NCBI GenBank assembly: GCA_016929895.1
Contig: JAFGHW010000017.1
Span: forward strand, 1 to 58,824
Reading direction: 5' to 3'
DNA from: Candidatus Woesearchaeota archaeon
GTDB lineage: Archaea; Nanobdellota; Nanobdellia; Woesearchaeales; ARS49
DNA: 58,824 nucleotides
Position 1 is the stretch's first letter; the number at the start of each line of letters is the position of its first letter. The notes beneath the pieces are model-generated. The model saw only the letters and a program-made list of their open reading frames with translations, did not search any database and was not told where the DNA came from. Shown one piece after another: positions 50,151-56,907 of the stretch. Made by a program: the position numbers and the translations under genes.

Positions 50151-52121
50151 ATGGCAAAAAAGAAATTTTACATAACAACAGCAATAGATTATCCTAATTC
50201 ATTTCCCCATGTAGGTCATGCATATGAAAAAATAATTGCAGATGTTTTAGCTAGATGGCACAGGCTAAAAGGAGAAGATGTATTCTTTTTAACAGGAACA
50301 GACGAGCACGGCCAAAAAATATACAAAACAGCAAAAGAACAAGGAAAAGAACCAAAACAGTTCGTAGACGAGATGGTTCCTTATTTTAAGAAGCTGTGCA
50401 AAAAATTAAACATTTCCAATTCAAGATTTATCAGAACAACAGAAGAACAGCATAAAAAAATATGCCGGGACATCTTTAAAAAACTGGAAAACAATGGAGA
50501 TATCTACAAAGGAGCGTATGAGGGGCTTTACTGTTCAGGATGCGAAGCATATTACACTGAAAAAGATTTAATCGACGGACTGTGCCCTGTTCATAAGAAA
50601 AAACCAGAACCAGTAAAAGAGGAAACATATTTTTTCAGAATGTCCAAATACCAGGACCGCCTGATAAAACACATAAACCAATATCCTAACTTTATACAAC
50701 CAACCTCCAAAAGAAACGAGATACTAAACAGGCTGAAAGAGCCATTAAAAGACCTAAGTGTTTCAAGAACAACATTTGACTGGGGAGTTTCAGTGCCCGG
50801 AGACAAAGAACACGTATTATATGTCTGGCTTGATGCGTTATTAAATTATATCACAGGACTTGATTATCCTGGAGAAAACTTCAAAAAATACTGGCCAGCA
50901 GACGCCCATATAATAGGAAAAGACATAACATGGTTTCATACAGTGATATGGCCATGCGAATTAATGTCAGCAGGAATAGAACTGCCAAAAACAGTTCATG
51001 TTCATGGCTTTGTAAACTTAGGAGGAGAAAAATTATCCAAATCCCGCGGAATAGTAGTAGACCCAATCAAATTAGTAGATGAATACGGAGTAGATGCAGT
51101 AAGATACTTTTTCATCAAAGAAATACCTGCAGGAGAAGACGGAAATTTCTCATACGAAGCACTAACAGAAAGAACAAATTCAGACCTAGCAGACGATTTA
51201 GGAAATTTATTGCAGAGAACAAGCGTGTTGATTCACAAAAACTTTGGCGGAAAAATACCCCTGCCTGTAAGATTTGAGCGCGAAGAAGAAGAACTAATCC
51301 AGGAATCAGACATTTTTGAGCAAACAGATGAATTAATGAAAACATTTCAATGGAACAAAGCAATATCCAGAATATGGTCGTTTATACGAATGTGCAATAA
51401 ATACATAAATGAAACAGAACCCTGGAAAAGAAAAAACGAGCCAGACAGGCTGGCAACAATATTATACACCTTGGCAGAAAGCCTGAGAATAATATCGATT
51501 TACATATCCCCGTTTGTCCCGGAGACTGCAGAAAAAATATCGCATCAATTAGGAAGAAAACCAGGAACATTTGCAGATATCAAATTCAAGAAAACAACCA
51601 AAGGAGTGCTGGAAAAACCAGAAATATTATTTAAAAAAACCGAAGCAAAACAAGAAGATATTTTTGCCAAGCTAAGCCTGAGAGTTGCCAGGATTTTAGA
51701 AGCAAAAGAACACCCATCAGCAGACAAGCTGCTAATCTTACAAATAGACTTAGGAACTGAAAAAAGACAATTAGTGGCGGGACTAAAACCGCATTTTAGT
51801 ATTGATGAACTAATCGGAAAACACATAGTTGTCTTAACAAACCTTAAACCAGCAAAAATCAAAGGGACAGAAAGCAATGGAATGCTTCTCGCAGCAGAGC
51901 ATAAAAACAAAGTAGTATTATTAGAAGCTCCGCGCTCAGAACCAGGAGAGCAGGTATTTGTTGAAGGAATTACACCCTGCAGAGAACAAATCTCTATCAA
52001 GGATTTTGAGAAAATAAATATCACAACAAAACAAGGAAGAGCAATCTATAACAAACAATTCTTAAAAACAAAAAAAGAGGAAATAGAGGCAAACATAGAC
52101 GATGGAGCAAAAGTATGCTAG
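50151..52121 (+). CDS. metG: Methionine-tRNA ligase with C-terminal tRNA-binding (OB) domain
   Basis: HVGH, TGTDEHG, YVWLDAL, GKDI, KLSKS, HPSADKL, NLKPA…SNGMLL. Confidence 0.97.
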   Translation: MAKKKFYITTAIDYPNSFPHVGHAYEKIIADVLARWHRLKGEDVFFLTGTDEHGQKIYKTAKEQGKEPKQFVDEMVPYFKKLCKKLNISNSRFIRTTEEQHKKICRDIFKKLENNGDIYKGAYEGLYCSGCEAYYTEKDLIDGLCPVHKKKPEPVKEETYFFRMSKYQDRLIKHINQYPNFIQPTSKRNEILNRLKEPLKDLSVSRTTFDWGVSVPGDKEHVLYVWLDALLNYITGLDYPGENFKKYWPADAHIIGKDITWFHTVIWPCELMSAGIELPKTVHVHGFVNLGGEKLSKSRGIVVDPIKLVDEYGVDAVRYFFIKEIPAGEDGNFSYEALTERTNSDLADDLGNLLQRTSVLIHKNFGGKIPLPVRFEREEEELIQESDIFEQTDELMKTFQWNKAISRIWSFIRMCNKYINETEPWKRKNEPDRLATILYTLAESLRIISIYISPFVPETAEKISHQLGRKPGTFADIKFKKTTKGVLEKPEILFKKTEAKQEDIFAKLSLRVARILEAKEHPSADKLLILQIDLGTEKRQLVAGLKPHFSIDELIGKHIVVLTNLKPAKIKGTESNGMLLAAEHKNKVVLLEAPRSEPGEQVFVEGITPCREQISIKDFEKINITTKQGRAIYNKQFLKTKKEEIEANIDDGAKVC

Positions 52122-52686
52122 AATTCTGGGAATAATCCTAGTTCCAGTTGTGATTTACTTACTTAGTTTTGGAATAGTAGTTTTTTATTATCCAACATAT
52201 GAAAAATTAATCAATAAATACAGTTCTGATAAAACAACAGCTTCTCTGCAAACCAAAAACATAATTTCATATTTTCAGGGCAAAGAAGAATTAAGAGGAT
52301 TTACTTTTTACGAAGCAAAACATTTGAAAGATGTAAGATTTGTAATCTGGCTGTTGATTATTATTTTAATTTTCAGTATTATTGGCTTGTTTTTGATTAA
52401 AGATGCCAAAGCAGTTGTTTACGGAGGAATACTGAGCTTGTTTTTGCCATTGATTCTGTATTTACTGCCTTTTTCCTTGGTTTTTGACTTGTTTCATAGA
52501 ATTGCATTTCCCCAAGGGAACTGGATATTTGATTCAAGCTCAATACTGATACAGATGTATCCTTTGGAGTTTTTTTGCGCTTTTTTCAAAAACATATTAA
52601 TACGAGGATTTATCTTAGGATTAGTGATAACAATACTTTTTTCAATAGATTATTTAAAGAACAAAATATATGTTCTACTACAATAA
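52102..52686 (+). CDS. DUF1461/TIGR01906 membrane protein (Lit, lipoprotein intramolecular transacylase-like)
   Basis: E-x-x-H-L-x-D-V-R and F-x-x-F-H-x-x-x-F-P-x-G-N-W-x-F…L-I-x-M-Y-P-x-x-F-F motifs; four TM helices. Confidence 0.75.
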   Translation: MEQKYARILGIILVPVVIYLLSFGIVVFYYPTYEKLINKYSSDKTTASLQTKNIISYFQGKEELRGFTFYEAKHLKDVRFVIWLLIIILIFSIIGLFLIKDAKAVVYGGILSLFLPLILYLLPFSLVFDLFHRIAFPQGNWIFDSSSILIQMYPLEFFCAFFKNILIRGFILGLVITILFSIDYLKNKIYVLLQ

Positions 52687-52742
52687 AATTAATAAATAGG
52701 TTTGCTATTTTTGAATAACAACAACCTAAAGAGGGGGATATT

Positions 52743-53990
52743 ATGGATACGAGAGTCAGGAAAATCATATTGGCAAGTTTTACAATTCTTGTAATTCTAA
52801 TGCTAACAGGATGCGCTTTAAAGGACTTTAAAATCAAAAGAAAGGCGCAAATAACAGACACAGAAATAGACGAAATAGACAAAGCACTGCAGGAAATAGA
52901 AAAAGTATCAGAGTTAATAGAGCAGGAAAACCCTGACGTTCCGATAGAAGAAATGAAAGACCAAACCCCTGAAGAAGATGACAGCGGACTTCCGGCAAAA
53001 ACTGTCAAAGAAGGGGACCTGGTGGAATTCCCAAACCTAAAAGCAACAGACCCTGACGGAGATTTAATCGAATACACATTCACAGCGCCTCTAAACAGAA
53101 GAGGAAAATGGCAGACAAAAGAAGGAGATGCAGGAAGATACAAGGTAACAATCACAGCATCAGACGGTATCAATAAAGTAAGCCAAGATGTTGTCATAAT
53201 CGTAAAAGCACTAAACAGGCCGCCAGTGCTTTCAATAAAAGAAAAAACAATAGTAGTATCTGAAGGAGAAAAAATAACACTAAGCGCAACAGCAACAGAC
53301 CCTGACGGGGACGAAGTAAAAATAAGCTATACAGGATGGATGACAGGACCTGTAAAAACAACTGATTACCGCGACGCAGGAGAACACACAGTAATAGTAA
53401 CTGCATCAGACGGAAAAGAAAAAACCCAGGAAGAAATCAAAGTAGTTGTAGAGAATGTCAACAGAGGACCAAGAATAGAAGCAATAACCGACATTGTAAT
53501 AACAGAAGGAGACAAAATAACGATAGAACCAAAAGCAACAGACCCTGACGGAGATGAAATAAACTTTGTTTATTCCAGACCAGTAGACCCAACAGGAGTC
53601 TGGAGAACAGCAGAAGGAGACTCAGGAAAATACAGAATAACAGTAACAGCAACAGACGGAGAACTTGAAGACCAAACAAGCTTCTACATAGTAGTAGAAT
53701 CATTAAACAAGCCGCCAATAATAACAGTTCCCACTGAAATGATAACAGTAGACGAAGGAGAACTAGTAAGCATAAATGCAGAAATAACAGACCCTGAAAA
53801 TGACGAAATGACAATAACCTACACAGGATGGATGACAACAGACACGTACATGACTGACTATGAAGACCAAGGAACACACCAAGTAACAATCAAAGCAACA
53901 GACGGCGTAAACACAGCAGAAAAAGAAATTACAATCATAGTAAATGACGTAAACCGTGCTCCTGTATTTGAAACAGGAGCTTTTGATTAA
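52743..53990 (+). CDS. Lipoprotein with four tandem Ig/PKD/cadherin-like repeats
   Basis: Basic N-region, hydrophobic H-region, lipobox LTG-C24; repeated ATDPDGD…ASDG…N-R-x-P. Confidence 0.82.
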   Translation: MDTRVRKIILASFTILVILMLTGCALKDFKIKRKAQITDTEIDEIDKALQEIEKVSELIEQENPDVPIEEMKDQTPEEDDSGLPAKTVKEGDLVEFPNLKATDPDGDLIEYTFTAPLNRRGKWQTKEGDAGRYKVTITASDGINKVSQDVVIIVKALNRPPVLSIKEKTIVVSEGEKITLSATATDPDGDEVKISYTGWMTGPVKTTDYRDAGEHTVIVTASDGKEKTQEEIKVVVENVNRGPRIEAITDIVITEGDKITIEPKATDPDGDEINFVYSRPVDPTGVWRTAEGDSGKYRITVTATDGELEDQTSFYIVVESLNKPPIITVPTEMITVDEGELVSINAEITDPENDEMTITYTGWMTTDTYMTDYEDQGTHQVTIKATDGVNTAEKEITIIVNDVNRAPVFETGAFD

Positions 53991-54009
53991 AATTATTTTT
54001 TTTATATTT

Positions 54010-56067
54010 ATGCTCTTAAAATCTTTAAAACTGGAAAACATAAGAAGTTATATTTCGCAGGAAATAAAATTTCCAACAGGAATAGTTCTATTATCAGGGG
54101 ATATTGGCTCTGGAAAATCAACCATATTATTATCAATAGAATTTGCCTTATTCGGGATACTGCCCGGTGAATTAACTGGAAGTTCTTTATTACGAAACGG
54201 CGAAAGCAAAGGAAGTGTTGAGCTTAATTTTGAAATAAACAATCAAAATGTTATAATTTATCGTACTTTAAAACGAAGCAAGACCTCTGTAGGGCAAGGG
54301 AATGGGTATATTGTTAAGAATAATGTTAAAATAGAACTAACCCCTGTTGAGCTTAAAACCCAGATTTTTTTATTATTAGGATACCCCAAAGAAATGCTTG
54401 CAAAAAGCAGGAATATCTACCGCTTTACAGTTTATACACCTCAAGAAGACATGAAAAGAATACTGCAGGAACGAAAAGAAGACCGGCTGGACATATTACG
54501 CAAGGTATTTGACATAGACAAATATAAAAGAGTCCAGGACAATACGGTTTCTTACATAAGAACAATCAAGGAAGAACAAAAAGAAAAAGCAGGAATGACA
54601 GCAGACTTGGAAGAAAAGAAAAAAAACCGCAGATACCGCCAAAGAGACTTTAATCTCGCTGAAAAAAAGATACAAGACATAAAACCACTGGTCAATGCCG
54701 CCAAAATAAAAGTAGAACACAAGAAAAAAATAATAGAAGAAACAGAAGAAAGACAAAAAAAACTGCAGGAGCTAAAAAAATCATTGGCTGTAAAAGAAAC
54801 AGAAATACAAAACAAAACCGAGCAGCACAATTTTAACTTGAAACAAACAAAAGAGCTTGAAAAAGAAATAAAAAAATTACAAAAAGAACTGGACGGGGAG
54901 GAAATAAAAGAAACGTCTTCGGAAGAGATACAGGAAATAAACAAGAAAATAATTTCACTGGAAAAAGAAATCCGCGCTTTAAACGAGAAAAAAACAATAC
55001 ACGAAACAGACAAAAAAAGAAGCCAGGAACTAAAACAAAAAATAAATGAATTAGACAACTGCCCGACATGCCTTCAAATTGTTGATGAAACCCATAAATC
55101 CAATATTTCTTCAAAAGAAAATGAAAAAATACAAACATCAACATTGCACATAAACAAGTATTTTCAGGAGGCTGTTGAAAAAGAAAAAGAACTGGAAACA
55201 AACAAAACAAAAGCGGAAAACCTGCGGGACCAAGAGAAAAAGATGGCAGAGCTAAGAATCAAAAAAACCAATCTTGAAGACAAGGAAAAAAAATACGAGA
55301 AGTCAATAGAACTGCAGGAGAAATTATTAAAGACCATAGAAGAAGCAAAAACAAAAAAACAAGAAATATCTCAGGAAACCAAAAAATATCTCGGGACTGA
55401 AAAAGAAATAGAAGCCGACAAAAAAGAACTTGCATTTTTACAAGACGAAGAAAAAAACCAGGAGATAGAATACAACAGGGCTGTTGAGAAAAAAGAAAAC
55501 ATGAAATCAATTATAGAAGAGCTTGACAAAGAAATAGATAAAAAAGAAAAAATCAAAAACCAATTACTAAAACTGCAGGATTTGAAAACATGGCTGACAG
55601 ATTATTTTTTAAAACTAACAGAAGCCATAGAAAAACAGGTAATGACGCGCGTGTATTACGAATTCAATGAATTACTGCAGGCATGGTTTAGTGCCTTGGT
55701 AGAAGACGAAGCAATACAAATACGGCTGGATGACACATTCACGCCGCTGATAGTCCAGAATGGATATGATATTGACATAGATAATTTAAGCGGAGGAGAA
55801 AAAACAGCATGTGCATTGGCTTATCGGCTAGCACTTAATAAAGTAATAAATGACCTAATCACAGACATTAATACCAAAGAATTACTCATATTAGACGAGC
55901 CGACAGACGGCTTTAGCTCAGAACAACTAGACCAGATGAGAACTGTTCTGGAACAACTAGGAATGAAGCAAATCATAATAGTAAGCCATGAAAACAAAGT
56001 AGAAACATTTGTGGATGAGGTCATTAAAGTTAATAAAAGCGAGCATGTAAGCCAATTAGCATCATGA
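54010..56067 (+). CDS. Rad50/SbcC-like SMC-family ATPase
   Basis: Walker A GDIGSGKS, Q-loop YTPQE, long coiled coil with CPTC zinc hook, LSGGE, LILDEPT, IVSH. Confidence 0.92.
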   Translation: MLLKSLKLENIRSYISQEIKFPTGIVLLSGDIGSGKSTILLSIEFALFGILPGELTGSSLLRNGESKGSVELNFEINNQNVIIYRTLKRSKTSVGQGNGYIVKNNVKIELTPVELKTQIFLLLGYPKEMLAKSRNIYRFTVYTPQEDMKRILQERKEDRLDILRKVFDIDKYKRVQDNTVSYIRTIKEEQKEKAGMTADLEEKKKNRRYRQRDFNLAEKKIQDIKPLVNAAKIKVEHKKKIIEETEERQKKLQELKKSLAVKETEIQNKTEQHNFNLKQTKELEKEIKKLQKELDGEEIKETSSEEIQEINKKIISLEKEIRALNEKKTIHETDKKRSQELKQKINELDNCPTCLQIVDETHKSNISSKENEKIQTSTLHINKYFQEAVEKEKELETNKTKAENLRDQEKKMAELRIKKTNLEDKEKKYEKSIELQEKLLKTIEEAKTKKQEISQETKKYLGTEKEIEADKKELAFLQDEEKNQEIEYNRAVEKKENMKSIIEELDKEIDKKEKIKNQLLKLQDLKTWLTDYFLKLTEAIEKQVMTRVYYEFNELLQAWFSALVEDEAIQIRLDDTFTPLIVQNGYDIDIDNLSGGEKTACALAYRLALNKVINDLITDINTKELLILDEPTDGFSSEQLDQMRTVLEQLGMKQIIIVSHENKVETFVDEVIKVNKSEHVSQLAS

Positions 56068-56907
56068 ATACTTTTTACAGAAATCAACAAAACGATAAGT
56101 TTCAGGATAATGTCCAAGATAAATATGTGCATTCTTCGGGCCGTGCCTGTTTTTTTCAGCGGTCACAGAGATAACATCAATAACCTGGCCCGGCTTTTTA
56201 ATTTTCTTATAAAACCGAAAAATAGTGTCGGCATATTTTTTAAATCCGAGCGGAACAAAAAATAGAGTTTTTCCCGGCTCTTCTCTTATTACCTCATCAC
56301 AATCAGTAACAGCGATAACTGCAGAATGATTTTTCCGCGCCATCTGGCCAAGATTATACGCCTTGGTCTCAAAAACATTTGCCTTGTCAATAACAATCAA
56401 CTCCTTTTTTCTGATATCAGGAGCGATTGTTTCAAAAGACAATTCATCACAATGGCAAAGCCTAAGAGTTCTTATCTTTAGACCATGCTTTTCATAATAA
56501 TTAATAAAATCAAGCGTCCTTTCAGTTCCTGTAGAAAAATAACTTTCCTTGTGTTTATTCAGCGCAACACGGCAAGCAATACACAAAGCAAGCTCGCTTT
56601 GGCCTTGATTTTGGGATTTTGCAAAAAAATTCCCTGCAAAAACAAACAACCCGGGATTAAACCCATCACCTGTAAGATAATCCAAATCAATCAAACCAGT
56701 CCTAAGACCAGGCCTGGCTTTTGACTCCATTCTTGCATTTATCCTATCAAGGCAGTCTGGAATGATTTCCTCAATGCTTTTAATTCCAAAAGAAAAACCA
56801 TGCTCATCTAACTTATTAGCAATTTCTCTAAGCTCTCCTGAATAAGCTGCATTCTTTATTTCTTTTATACTGTTAATAATATCTAGTTTTTTTAAATTAC
56901 TTGCCAT
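56062..56907 (-). CDS. DnaB-like helicase C-terminal domain homologue, apparently catalytically inactive
   Basis: GLRTGLIDLDYLTG, ALCIACRVA, ADTIFRFY and EKNRHGP…YRF resemble DnaB; Walker A reads GQS instead of GKT. Confidence 0.7.
   Translation of the reverse strand: MASNLKKLDIINSIKEIKNAAYSGELREIANKLDEHGFSFGIKSIEEIIPDCLDRINARMESKARPGLRTGLIDLDYLTGDGFNPGLFVFAGNFFAKSQNQGQSELALCIACRVALNKHKESYFSTGTERTLDFINYYEKHGLKIRTLRLCHCDELSFETIAPDIRKKELIVIDKANVFETKAYNLGQMARKNHSAVIAVTDCDEVIREEPGKTLFFVPLGFKKYADTIFRFYKKIKKPGQVIDVISVTAEKNRHGPKNAHIYLGHYPETYRFVDFCKKYS

Follow-up and report, generated by a model that had tools for sequence, protein, structure and literature searches.

A predicted Lgt-LspA-Lit lipoprotein pathway of bacterial type in a Woesearchaeota archaeon and its relatives

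The closest described counterparts of the genes reported here are the Lgt-LspA-Lit pathway of Firmicutes, including its lgt2-lit2 unit (PMC8275575), and the archaeal AliA/AliB pathway (arCOG02177/02178; PMC12462473, PMC13631571). The Lit protein of B. cereus moves the sn-2 ester chain, needs the (R)-diacylglyceryl isomer and has no activity on the (S) isomer; the reaction is intramolecular, with no second donor and no lyso-lipid by-product, and takes place at the surface of the enzyme's own bilayer. It requires His85, His153 and Phe157, while Val89, Phe149 and Trp162 are highly conserved (PMC8275575). AliA and AliB lipidate the same kind of lipobox cysteine in archaea, but they are a distinct family using archaeol. 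In this study, we analysed a stretch of 58,824 nt of contig JAFGHW010000017.1 (assembly GCA_016929895.1), referred to as the window, which belongs to the genome of a Candidatus Woesearchaeota archaeon (873 kb, 92% complete, 56 contigs, 889 open reading frames (ORFs); hereafter the source genome). The window holds lit, a gene for a Lit-family membrane protein, directly upstream of a gene for a predicted lipoprotein.

Three papers of 2025-26 describe archaea as lacking Lgt and LspA or any homologue of the bacterial lipoprotein enzymes (PMC12462473, PMC13251419, PMC13631571). In the parts available, the first of them states that homologues of Lgt or Lsp have not been identified in archaea and the second, on the basis of a RefSeq search, that Lgt is absent from archaea. 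The same genes (DUF1461, LGT and Peptidase_A8) are nevertheless listed for Woesearchaeota as Module 15 in Table S3 of PMC8204110, and the supplement of PMC8421398 lists lgt and DUF1461. In the available parts of PMC8204110, however, DUF1461 is not tied to Lit, nor are a pathway or conclusions on lipids derived from these genes; its main text contains neither "lipoprotein" nor "Lgt", and its section on bacterial systems omits these genes. The word "lipoprotein" is also absent from PMC11606122, PMC7414124 and PMC8407392, and "archae" from PMC8689077. No text describing an Lgt-LspA-Lit pathway in archaea was found in a literature search to which subscription papers and preprint supplements did not belong. 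The sequence-only reading of the window had called the locus a candidate for an undescribed system, which holds for running text but not for the family frequencies given in the 2021 supplementary table of PMC8204110. The enzyme families, these frequencies, the NCBI names of the Lgt proteins and a bacterial-lipid proposal made from other genes are already known; what is new is an apparently intact Lit within a complete predicted lipoprotein route of bacterial type in an archaeal lineage.

The window had been read as coding for a DUF1461-type protein with two histidine motifs, HLKDVR (holding His74) and FHRIAFPQGNWIF (holding His132), whose gene overlaps metG, and all these features were present as described. 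The profile PF07314 (Lit, formerly DUF1461) matched the protein over model positions 2-176 of 176 with an E-value of 7.8e-16 and 59.1 bits against a cut-off of 24. Its hydropathy indicated four hydrophobic helices and a cap. An AlphaFold2 model built from a 36-sequence alignment, one row of which came from the unpublished genome G012, had a predicted local distance difference test score (pLDDT) of 95.5. All six Foldseek matches of this model with E <= 0.001 were B. cereus Lit (7B0O, 7B0P, 7B0Q and 7B0R; template modelling scores of 0.68-0.81). A wide structure search (VIA) also placed B. cereus Lit first, with a Z-score of 19.8 and a root-mean-square deviation of 2.3 Å over 188 residues, the next match having Z 7.2. 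The comparison with the Lit structure that had been proposed from the sequence thus came out in favour of Lit, with the histidines aligned.

In a single-sequence alignment to 7B0O His74 was off register, which was resolved by a profile alignment: there, HLkDVk is paired with RIHFVDVK, where the H85A and H85R chains carry their substitution. His74 is invariant in 36/36 aligned sequences. His74, His132 and Phe136, the equivalents of His85, His153 and Phe157, were each found in 150/150 of the best 150 of 7,297 profile-search hits; as these relatives were picked by profile similarity, the counts describe conservation among near relatives only. Pocket residues Val78, Phe128 and Trp141 (Val89, Phe149 and Trp162 in B. 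cereus Lit) are present as well and are kept in 148, 149 and 125 of the 150, respectively. The archaeal protein shares with B. cereus Lit the same predicted fold with four membrane helices and a cap, and further equivalents of Asp88, Lys/Arg90, Phe145, Phe152 and Phe164. It differs in being only about 20% identical, in its shorter cap, in the replacement of Phe86 by Leu/Met and of Asn159 by Gln, and in coming from a genome without detectable lipid synthesis. The profile searches and the model confirm lit as the gene of a Lit-family protein predicted to be intact, with the Lit fold and the catalytic residues kept.

This is the only lit gene of the source genome, and its product is 23-41% identical to relatives from other genera. 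When 20 of the 150 representatives were looked up, four carried an organism name, in all cases Nanoarchaeota or Nanoarchaeia. A tree of 26 archaeal Lit proteins, built with no bacterial outgroup, had long branches and support for 4/23 inner branches, and was uninformative on origin.

The enzymes expected to act before Lit were found on other contigs of the source genome. Lgt lies on contig C23 and matched PF01790 over its full length (E 3.4e-73) and TIGR00544 with 210.8 against a cut-off of 118.9. An alignment to 5AZB showed the presence of Y26, H103, R143, N146, G154 and R239, which PMC13251419 describes as the six essential residues. According to the same paper, the Lgt of monoderms does not complement E. 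coli depletion strains. The five Lgt motifs were found in 103-120 of 120 homologues, and 16/16 of these nearest proteins that bear an organism name belong to DPANN; NCBI already calls them Lgt. A scan of the genome contigs with Lgt gave one locus only. LspA lies on contig C13 (PF01252, E 1.4e-35; TIGR00077, 117.5 against 73.95), and the alignment to 6RYO showed its catalytic dyad, Asp114 and Asp128, together with the conserved set of 14 residues (PMC6952399). In the same genome, neither Lnt (TIGR00546) nor AliA was matched, the latter being searched for with DUF63 (PF01889) and with our own four-sequence profile in a genome that is 92% complete. We take DUF63 to be AliA (arCOG02177), and control matches in Haloferax, Methanocaldococcus and Methanosarcina support this. 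Of the two kinds of lipidation enzyme that the sequence-only reading had suggested looking for, the bacterial ones were thus found and the archaeal one was not. The source genome holds a complete set of predicted bacterial-type enzymes, namely Lgt, LspA and Lit.

Two of these loci contain further genes. At L115:6877-8743 (contig C23), a lipobox gene comes after lgt, and ahead of lgt lies an overlapping gene for a membrane protein of 255 aa that matched neither Pfam nor NCBIfam. In G045 (L109:527-1270), the gene ahead of lgt looks similar and codes for an unmatched membrane protein of 247 aa. Such a protein may be a further component. At L116:5395-7178 on contig C13, lspA is directly followed by four tandem paralogue-like ORFs of 130-135 aa with one N-terminal hydrophobic helix each, the first of which had no Pfam match.

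In the candidate substrate in the window, a basic N-region and a hydrophobic helix come before the lipobox LTG|C24, and Cys24 is the sole cysteine of the protein; the gene with an LTG-C lipobox that had been read 56 bp after lit was thereby confirmed. The signal peptide is followed by an acidic linker and about four repeats similar to immunoglobulin (Ig) or PKD domains. A strict lipobox is present in 103/120 homologues of this Ig/PKD protein and an N-terminal G-C in 16 of the other 17, while cysteine makes up 22/45,738 of their residues beyond position 50. Our own pattern scan of the source genome gave 26/889 ORFs with a lipobox (~3%), and, per 1% of residue frequency, cysteine gave 19 hits, whereas none of 14 control residues exceeded 3.5. 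Because the lipobox is conserved in homologues and cysteine exceeds the control residues, its occurrence goes beyond chance. A homologue of the Ig/PKD protein was found in 52/61 genomes of the order (E <= 1e-30), and all named homologues are from Woesearchaeota or Nanoarchaeia. Its gene is lineage-wide, and the protein is likely one substrate among many of the pathway. In G058 (C2:2431-5519), where no Lit was detected, the gene for the Ig/PKD lipoprotein and lspA are on one strand with about 1.5 kb between them.

The distribution of the pathway was studied in an order sample of 61 genomes, including the source genome, and a phylum sample of 301 genomes, all at least 90% complete. Four unpublished genomes (G003, G012, G027 and G275) are counted in these tallies, and at most 3/61 and 2/301 were flagged as such in any one search. 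In the order sample, Lit was found in 45/61, Lgt in 55/61 and LspA in 57/61 genomes. In the phylum sample, Lgt was present in 265/301 and Lit in 223/301 genomes (within the order, 207/218 and 183/218; in the other orders, 58/83 and 40/83), while DUF63 (AliA) was found in 8/301. As many as 214/223 Lit genomes also had Lgt, and outside the order Lit was detected in 40/58 Lgt-positive and 0/25 Lgt-negative genomes. Meanwhile, all eight DUF63 genomes, which represent eight families, lacked Lgt, Lit and LspA, so AliA and Lgt occurred together in 0/301 genomes; no Lit was found in 36 AliA loci either (170 kb, many of them short; the positive control worked). Within this one phylum, AliA and Lgt appear to be alternative routes.

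Table S3 of PMC8204110 gives DUF1461 in 0.71, LGT in 0.83 and Peptidase_A8 in 0.83 of 196 Woesearchaeota, and the available part of supplement 7 of PMC12462473 (60 of 67 DPANN rows) records AliA as 1 in Nanoarchaeum equitans, Nanobsidianus and Aenigmarchaeota and as 0 in 7/7 Woesearchaeota and 24/25 Pacearchaeota rows. Since Pacearchaeota are mostly without Lgt as well (0.078 of 90; PMC8204110 Table S3), the lack of AliA does not imply Lgt. The Lgt-LspA-Lit genes of Woesearchaeota fill a gap in the distribution of AliA, and the statement of the three specialist papers that archaea are without Lgt and LspA is contradicted by most of a large DPANN lineage.

The lipid on which these enzymes would act was approached through the synthesis genes. 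Searches of the source genome found no geranylgeranylglyceryl phosphate (GGGP) synthase, CarS, CdsA, PlsC or CDP-alcohol transferase; PlsY, acyl carrier protein and acyl-CoA ligase were not searched for. A phospholipase D hit was below cut-off and no patatin was found. Three other hits were rejected: a UbiA hit, considered as digeranylgeranylglyceryl phosphate synthase, matched decaprenyl-phosphate phosphoribosyltransferase best and was below cut-off; an iron-containing alcohol dehydrogenase, considered as glycerol-1-phosphate dehydrogenase, adjoins a phosphonopyruvate decarboxylase gene and scores 35.7 against 413; and a GpsA hit was a partial Rossmann match to model positions 1-79. Phosphonate biosynthesis genes were noted here: that of the phosphonopyruvate decarboxylase (L108:7-2288), itself over cut-off, that of the alcohol dehydrogenase next to it and, on another contig (L101:2486-3661), an ORF that reads by eye like a cytidylyltransferase-phosphoenolpyruvate mutase fusion. 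Without the synthesis genes searched for, the organism would have to import finished lipid.

Across the order, a full-length GGGP synthase was found in none of the 61 genomes, which gave four weak partial hits; this agrees with the available part of PMC8421398. PlsC-like acyltransferases were present in 38/61 and CDP-alcohol transferases in 32/61 genomes, and strong GpsA hits (E <= 1e-17) in 9/41. In G045, G051 and G059 (L109:6798-12224, L110:6110-8389 and L111:2999-8389), gpsA, over cut-off, and two genes for PlsC-like acyltransferases form one run, which includes genes for an acyl-CoA dehydrogenase and electron transfer flavoprotein in G045 and G059 and adjoins a desaturase-like gene in G051. 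All three genomes have a CarS-like gene near a CDP-alcohol transferase gene and no full-length GGGP synthase. To judge by its genes, this set could make ester phospholipids from acyl-CoA. In G016 (L112:2990-7650), lit leads a run on one strand that continues with an AcpS-like gene, a gene for an 804-aa fusion of acyl-CoA ligase and acyltransferase, and one for a major facilitator superfamily (MFS) transporter. We take this run to resemble the Aas-LplT lysolipid recycling pair.

Taken together, the gene content, the model and the analogy with B. cereus Lit make it probable that the source organism has a full Lgt-LspA-Lit route, which would make lyso-form lipoproteins from imported ester phospholipids. 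Lgt would move the diacylglyceryl group from phosphatidylglycerol onto Cys24 of the lipobox, LspA would then cut between Gly23 and Cys24, and Lit, whose predicted base is His132 and whose His74 would stabilise the oxyanion, would transfer the sn-2 ester chain onto the amine exposed by this cut. Of the three enzymes, Lit is the most informative, since the reaction known for it calls for an sn-2 ester with the handedness of bacterial lipids. Given that B. cereus Lit depends on this ester and on the (R)-diacylglyceryl isomer alike, bacterial-type ester phospholipids taken up from outside would be expected in the membrane of the organism. An intramolecular Lit would suit a cell unable to make lipids, because no second lipid donor is needed. 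The families involved, the lack of Lnt and the canonical lipoboxes are those of the Firmicute pathway, and its lgt2-lit2 coupling has a parallel in G204 and G282, where lit overlaps lgt. In contrast to the Firmicute case, the genes here are archaeal, chromosomal and lineage-wide, the donor lipid is, to judge by its genes, not made by the source organism, and no copper-resistance genes were noticed among the neighbours in the window.

A bacterial host is plausible as the simplest source of lipid, with the chances for and against it nearly balanced. Woesearchaeota have been proposed, from other genes, to modify bacterial-type lipids (PMC11868695, PMC10936187), in the former paper those of a bacterial host, while the available text of PMC8204110 leaves open whether their hosts are bacteria. 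Of the two explanations offered in the sequence-only reading, ester lipids from outside, hinting at a bacterial partner, fit best with the presence of Lgt and LspA and the lack of AliA and lipid synthesis, although the partner is plausible only, and scavenging, or in-house making in relatives, may also apply. The other explanation, a separate archaeal pathway with different chemistry, is weakened for Woesearchaeales but keeps some ground in those Aenigmarchaeota that carry Lit without Lgt and LspA. A wider proposal is more tentative, and we put it slightly below an even chance: Woesearchaeales and sister orders may have membranes or anchors of bacterial-type ester lipid fed by bacterial hosts, the choice between Lgt-LspA-Lit and AliA within DPANN may read out the domain of the host, and some members (those with gpsA, two acyltransferases, a CarS-like gene and a CDP-alcohol transferase gene but no GGGP synthase) may cross the lipid divide by making their own ester phospholipids. 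The chemistry of Lit makes the lipid type of these uncultured archaea testable and, indirectly, also the question of bacterial hosts.

Several results weigh against the proposed route. With the family models that had been suggested for the search, PF07314 passed but TIGR01906 did not (45.8 vs 74.8), and NF051877 was also under its equivalog cut-off (24.9 vs 400); a relative in G204 passed TIGR01906 (90.8), though not NF051877. The archaeal protein has 194 aa vs 218 aa in B. cereus Lit, and the position of Asn159 is variable (Q in 63, N in 31 and P in 17 of 150). Lit was not found in 35/218 genomes of the order, nor in whole families (0/6 in family f27), so it is dispensable in the order, and nine Lit genomes, all draft assemblies, lack Lgt. 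Among 37 Aenigmarchaeota, Table S3 of PMC8204110 gives Lit in 0.19, Lgt in 0.054, LspA in 0 and DUF63 in 0.89, which means that Lit can persist outside the bacterial route; the same table gives a CarS-like archaeal-type family in 0.42 of Woesearchaeota. Finally, gene absences in a genome that is 92% complete stay provisional, and co-occurrence counts among related genomes overstate the number of events, for which reason their p-values were given no weight.

The strongest alternative, which we consider unlikely, is that Lgt and LspA use archaeol-type ether phospholipids from an archaeal host and that Lit has acquired another function, such as intermolecular transfer of an acyl or acetyl group to the N-terminal amine. 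In favour of this, the chemistry of Lgt and LspA leaves the chain linkage unbroken. The Aenigmarchaeota pattern, in which Lit occurs in a group mostly with DUF63/AliA and without LspA (PMC8204110 Table S3), the frequency of CarS-like genes in Woesearchaeota, the differences at the Asn159 and Phe86 positions and the archaeal identity of the cultured DPANN hosts named in the available literature all point the same way. It is opposed by the whole His-His-Phe-Trp pocket, which is kept, by the separation of AliA and Lgt in the 301 genomes, and by the acyl-lipid genes, which are frequent in the order and in G016 form the run headed by lit. In addition, the archaeal-hosted N. equitans has AliA, while 7/7 Woesearchaeota rows have none (PMC12462473, available part of supplement 7). 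On balance, the Lgt-LspA-Lit route acting on ester lipids is preferred.

The features of the locus are collected in Table 1. The start of lit overlaps the stop of metG by 20 bp.

Table 1. Features of the lit locus (positions in the window)
Feature	Position	Strand	Basis or remark
lit: Lit-family membrane protein, predicted lipoprotein intramolecular transacylase, 194 aa	52102..52686	+	PF07314, model, hydropathy
His74 (equivalent of catalytic His85 of B. cereus Lit)	52321..52323	+	profile alignment
His132 to Phe136 (equivalents of catalytic His153 and essential Phe157)	52495..52509	+	alignment; His132 codon 52495-52497
Predicted surface lipoprotein, 415 aa	52743..53990	+	PKD, Big_9 and Cadherin_4 over cut-off; repeat motifs
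Lipobox L-T-G|C, Cys24; predicted Lgt attachment and LspA cleavage site	52803..52814	+	sequence, conservation
metG (methionine-tRNA ligase)	50151..52121	+	NCBIfam over cut-off; neighbour outside the mechanism

The position of lit directly upstream of the Ig/PKD lipoprotein gene suggests another explanation, namely that the two form a dedicated enzyme-substrate cassette in which Lit modifies mainly that protein. The adjacency was seen in 23/40 genomes with both genes (20/37 without the unpublished genomes), among them members of two further families in which lit does not adjoin metG, and lipobox genes make up only ~3% of ORFs. Nevertheless, 21 of the 23 cases fall in one family (21/29 genomes within it against 2/11 outside), and because of this the adjacency is read as mostly inherited family-level synteny with no dedicated cassette; the linkage with a lipobox gene seen in the window was therefore found mainly within the family. 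The link of lit is to the pathway in general. metG flanks lit in 14/30 loci, each of them from the window's family; elsewhere lit adjoins lgt or triosephosphate-isomerase-like genes, and in 11 genomes of five families (picked by eye and not to be taken as a rate) it lies within ~3 kb of lgt. Moreover, some genomes in which Lit was not found, such as G018, G057 and G058, still have the lipoprotein, and the source genome has a single lit for its many lipobox ORFs. A dedicated cassette is, on this evidence, improbable.

Still less probable, and very doubtful in our view, is a non-catalytic or outward-facing role for which Lit would be kept, such as acting on the lipoproteins of a partner cell at a contact site. 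Its patchy loss across the order and its fast divergence between genera would fit such a role. However, both histidines and the phenylalanine are invariant in the 150 relatives, Lit is accompanied by Lgt and LspA of the same cell, with lit and lgt coupled in several genomes, and B. cereus Lit works at the surface of the bilayer that holds it (PMC8275575). Bacterial contamination of the metagenome bin, to which the 56 contigs and the separate contigs of lit, lgt and lspA could point, is rejected with near certainty, as the single-contig genomes G052, G082 and G220 carry all three genes, lit shares its contig with archaeal genes and the named Lgt relatives are all DPANN.

The contig of lit passed archaeal cut-offs for RNA polymerase A' and B, uS7 and uS12 and also carries transcription factor B (TFB), which confirms the placing of the locus in an archaeon; the named close homologues are from Ca. 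Woesearchaeota. A contig from a public run, which may be the source sample, matches positions 50165-56200 without differences and rules out a mis-join only. Two RNA runs of the same study gave no sequence over the locus, which speaks neither for nor against its expression. The promoter and terminator scan at the locus, which used bacterial-type motifs only, gave results near shuffle levels.

Other genes of the window and the source genome were also noted. The methionyl-tRNA synthetase (50151-52121) matched PRK12267 best (770 bits, over cut-off) and was below cut-off on PRK00133. PRK12267 is, we presume, the Firmicute-like type, and metG may be another bacterial-type gene. Directly after the lipoprotein gene, 53956-56067 codes for an SMC/Rad50-like ATPase that is below all cut-offs, its closest models being Rad50 and an archaea-specific SMC-related protein, and the following ORF at 56062-56907 (281 aa) has a weak match to a DnaB-like C-terminal helicase (E 0.03). 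At L116, ORF 1300-2982 reads by eye like a bacterial-type DnaG primase.

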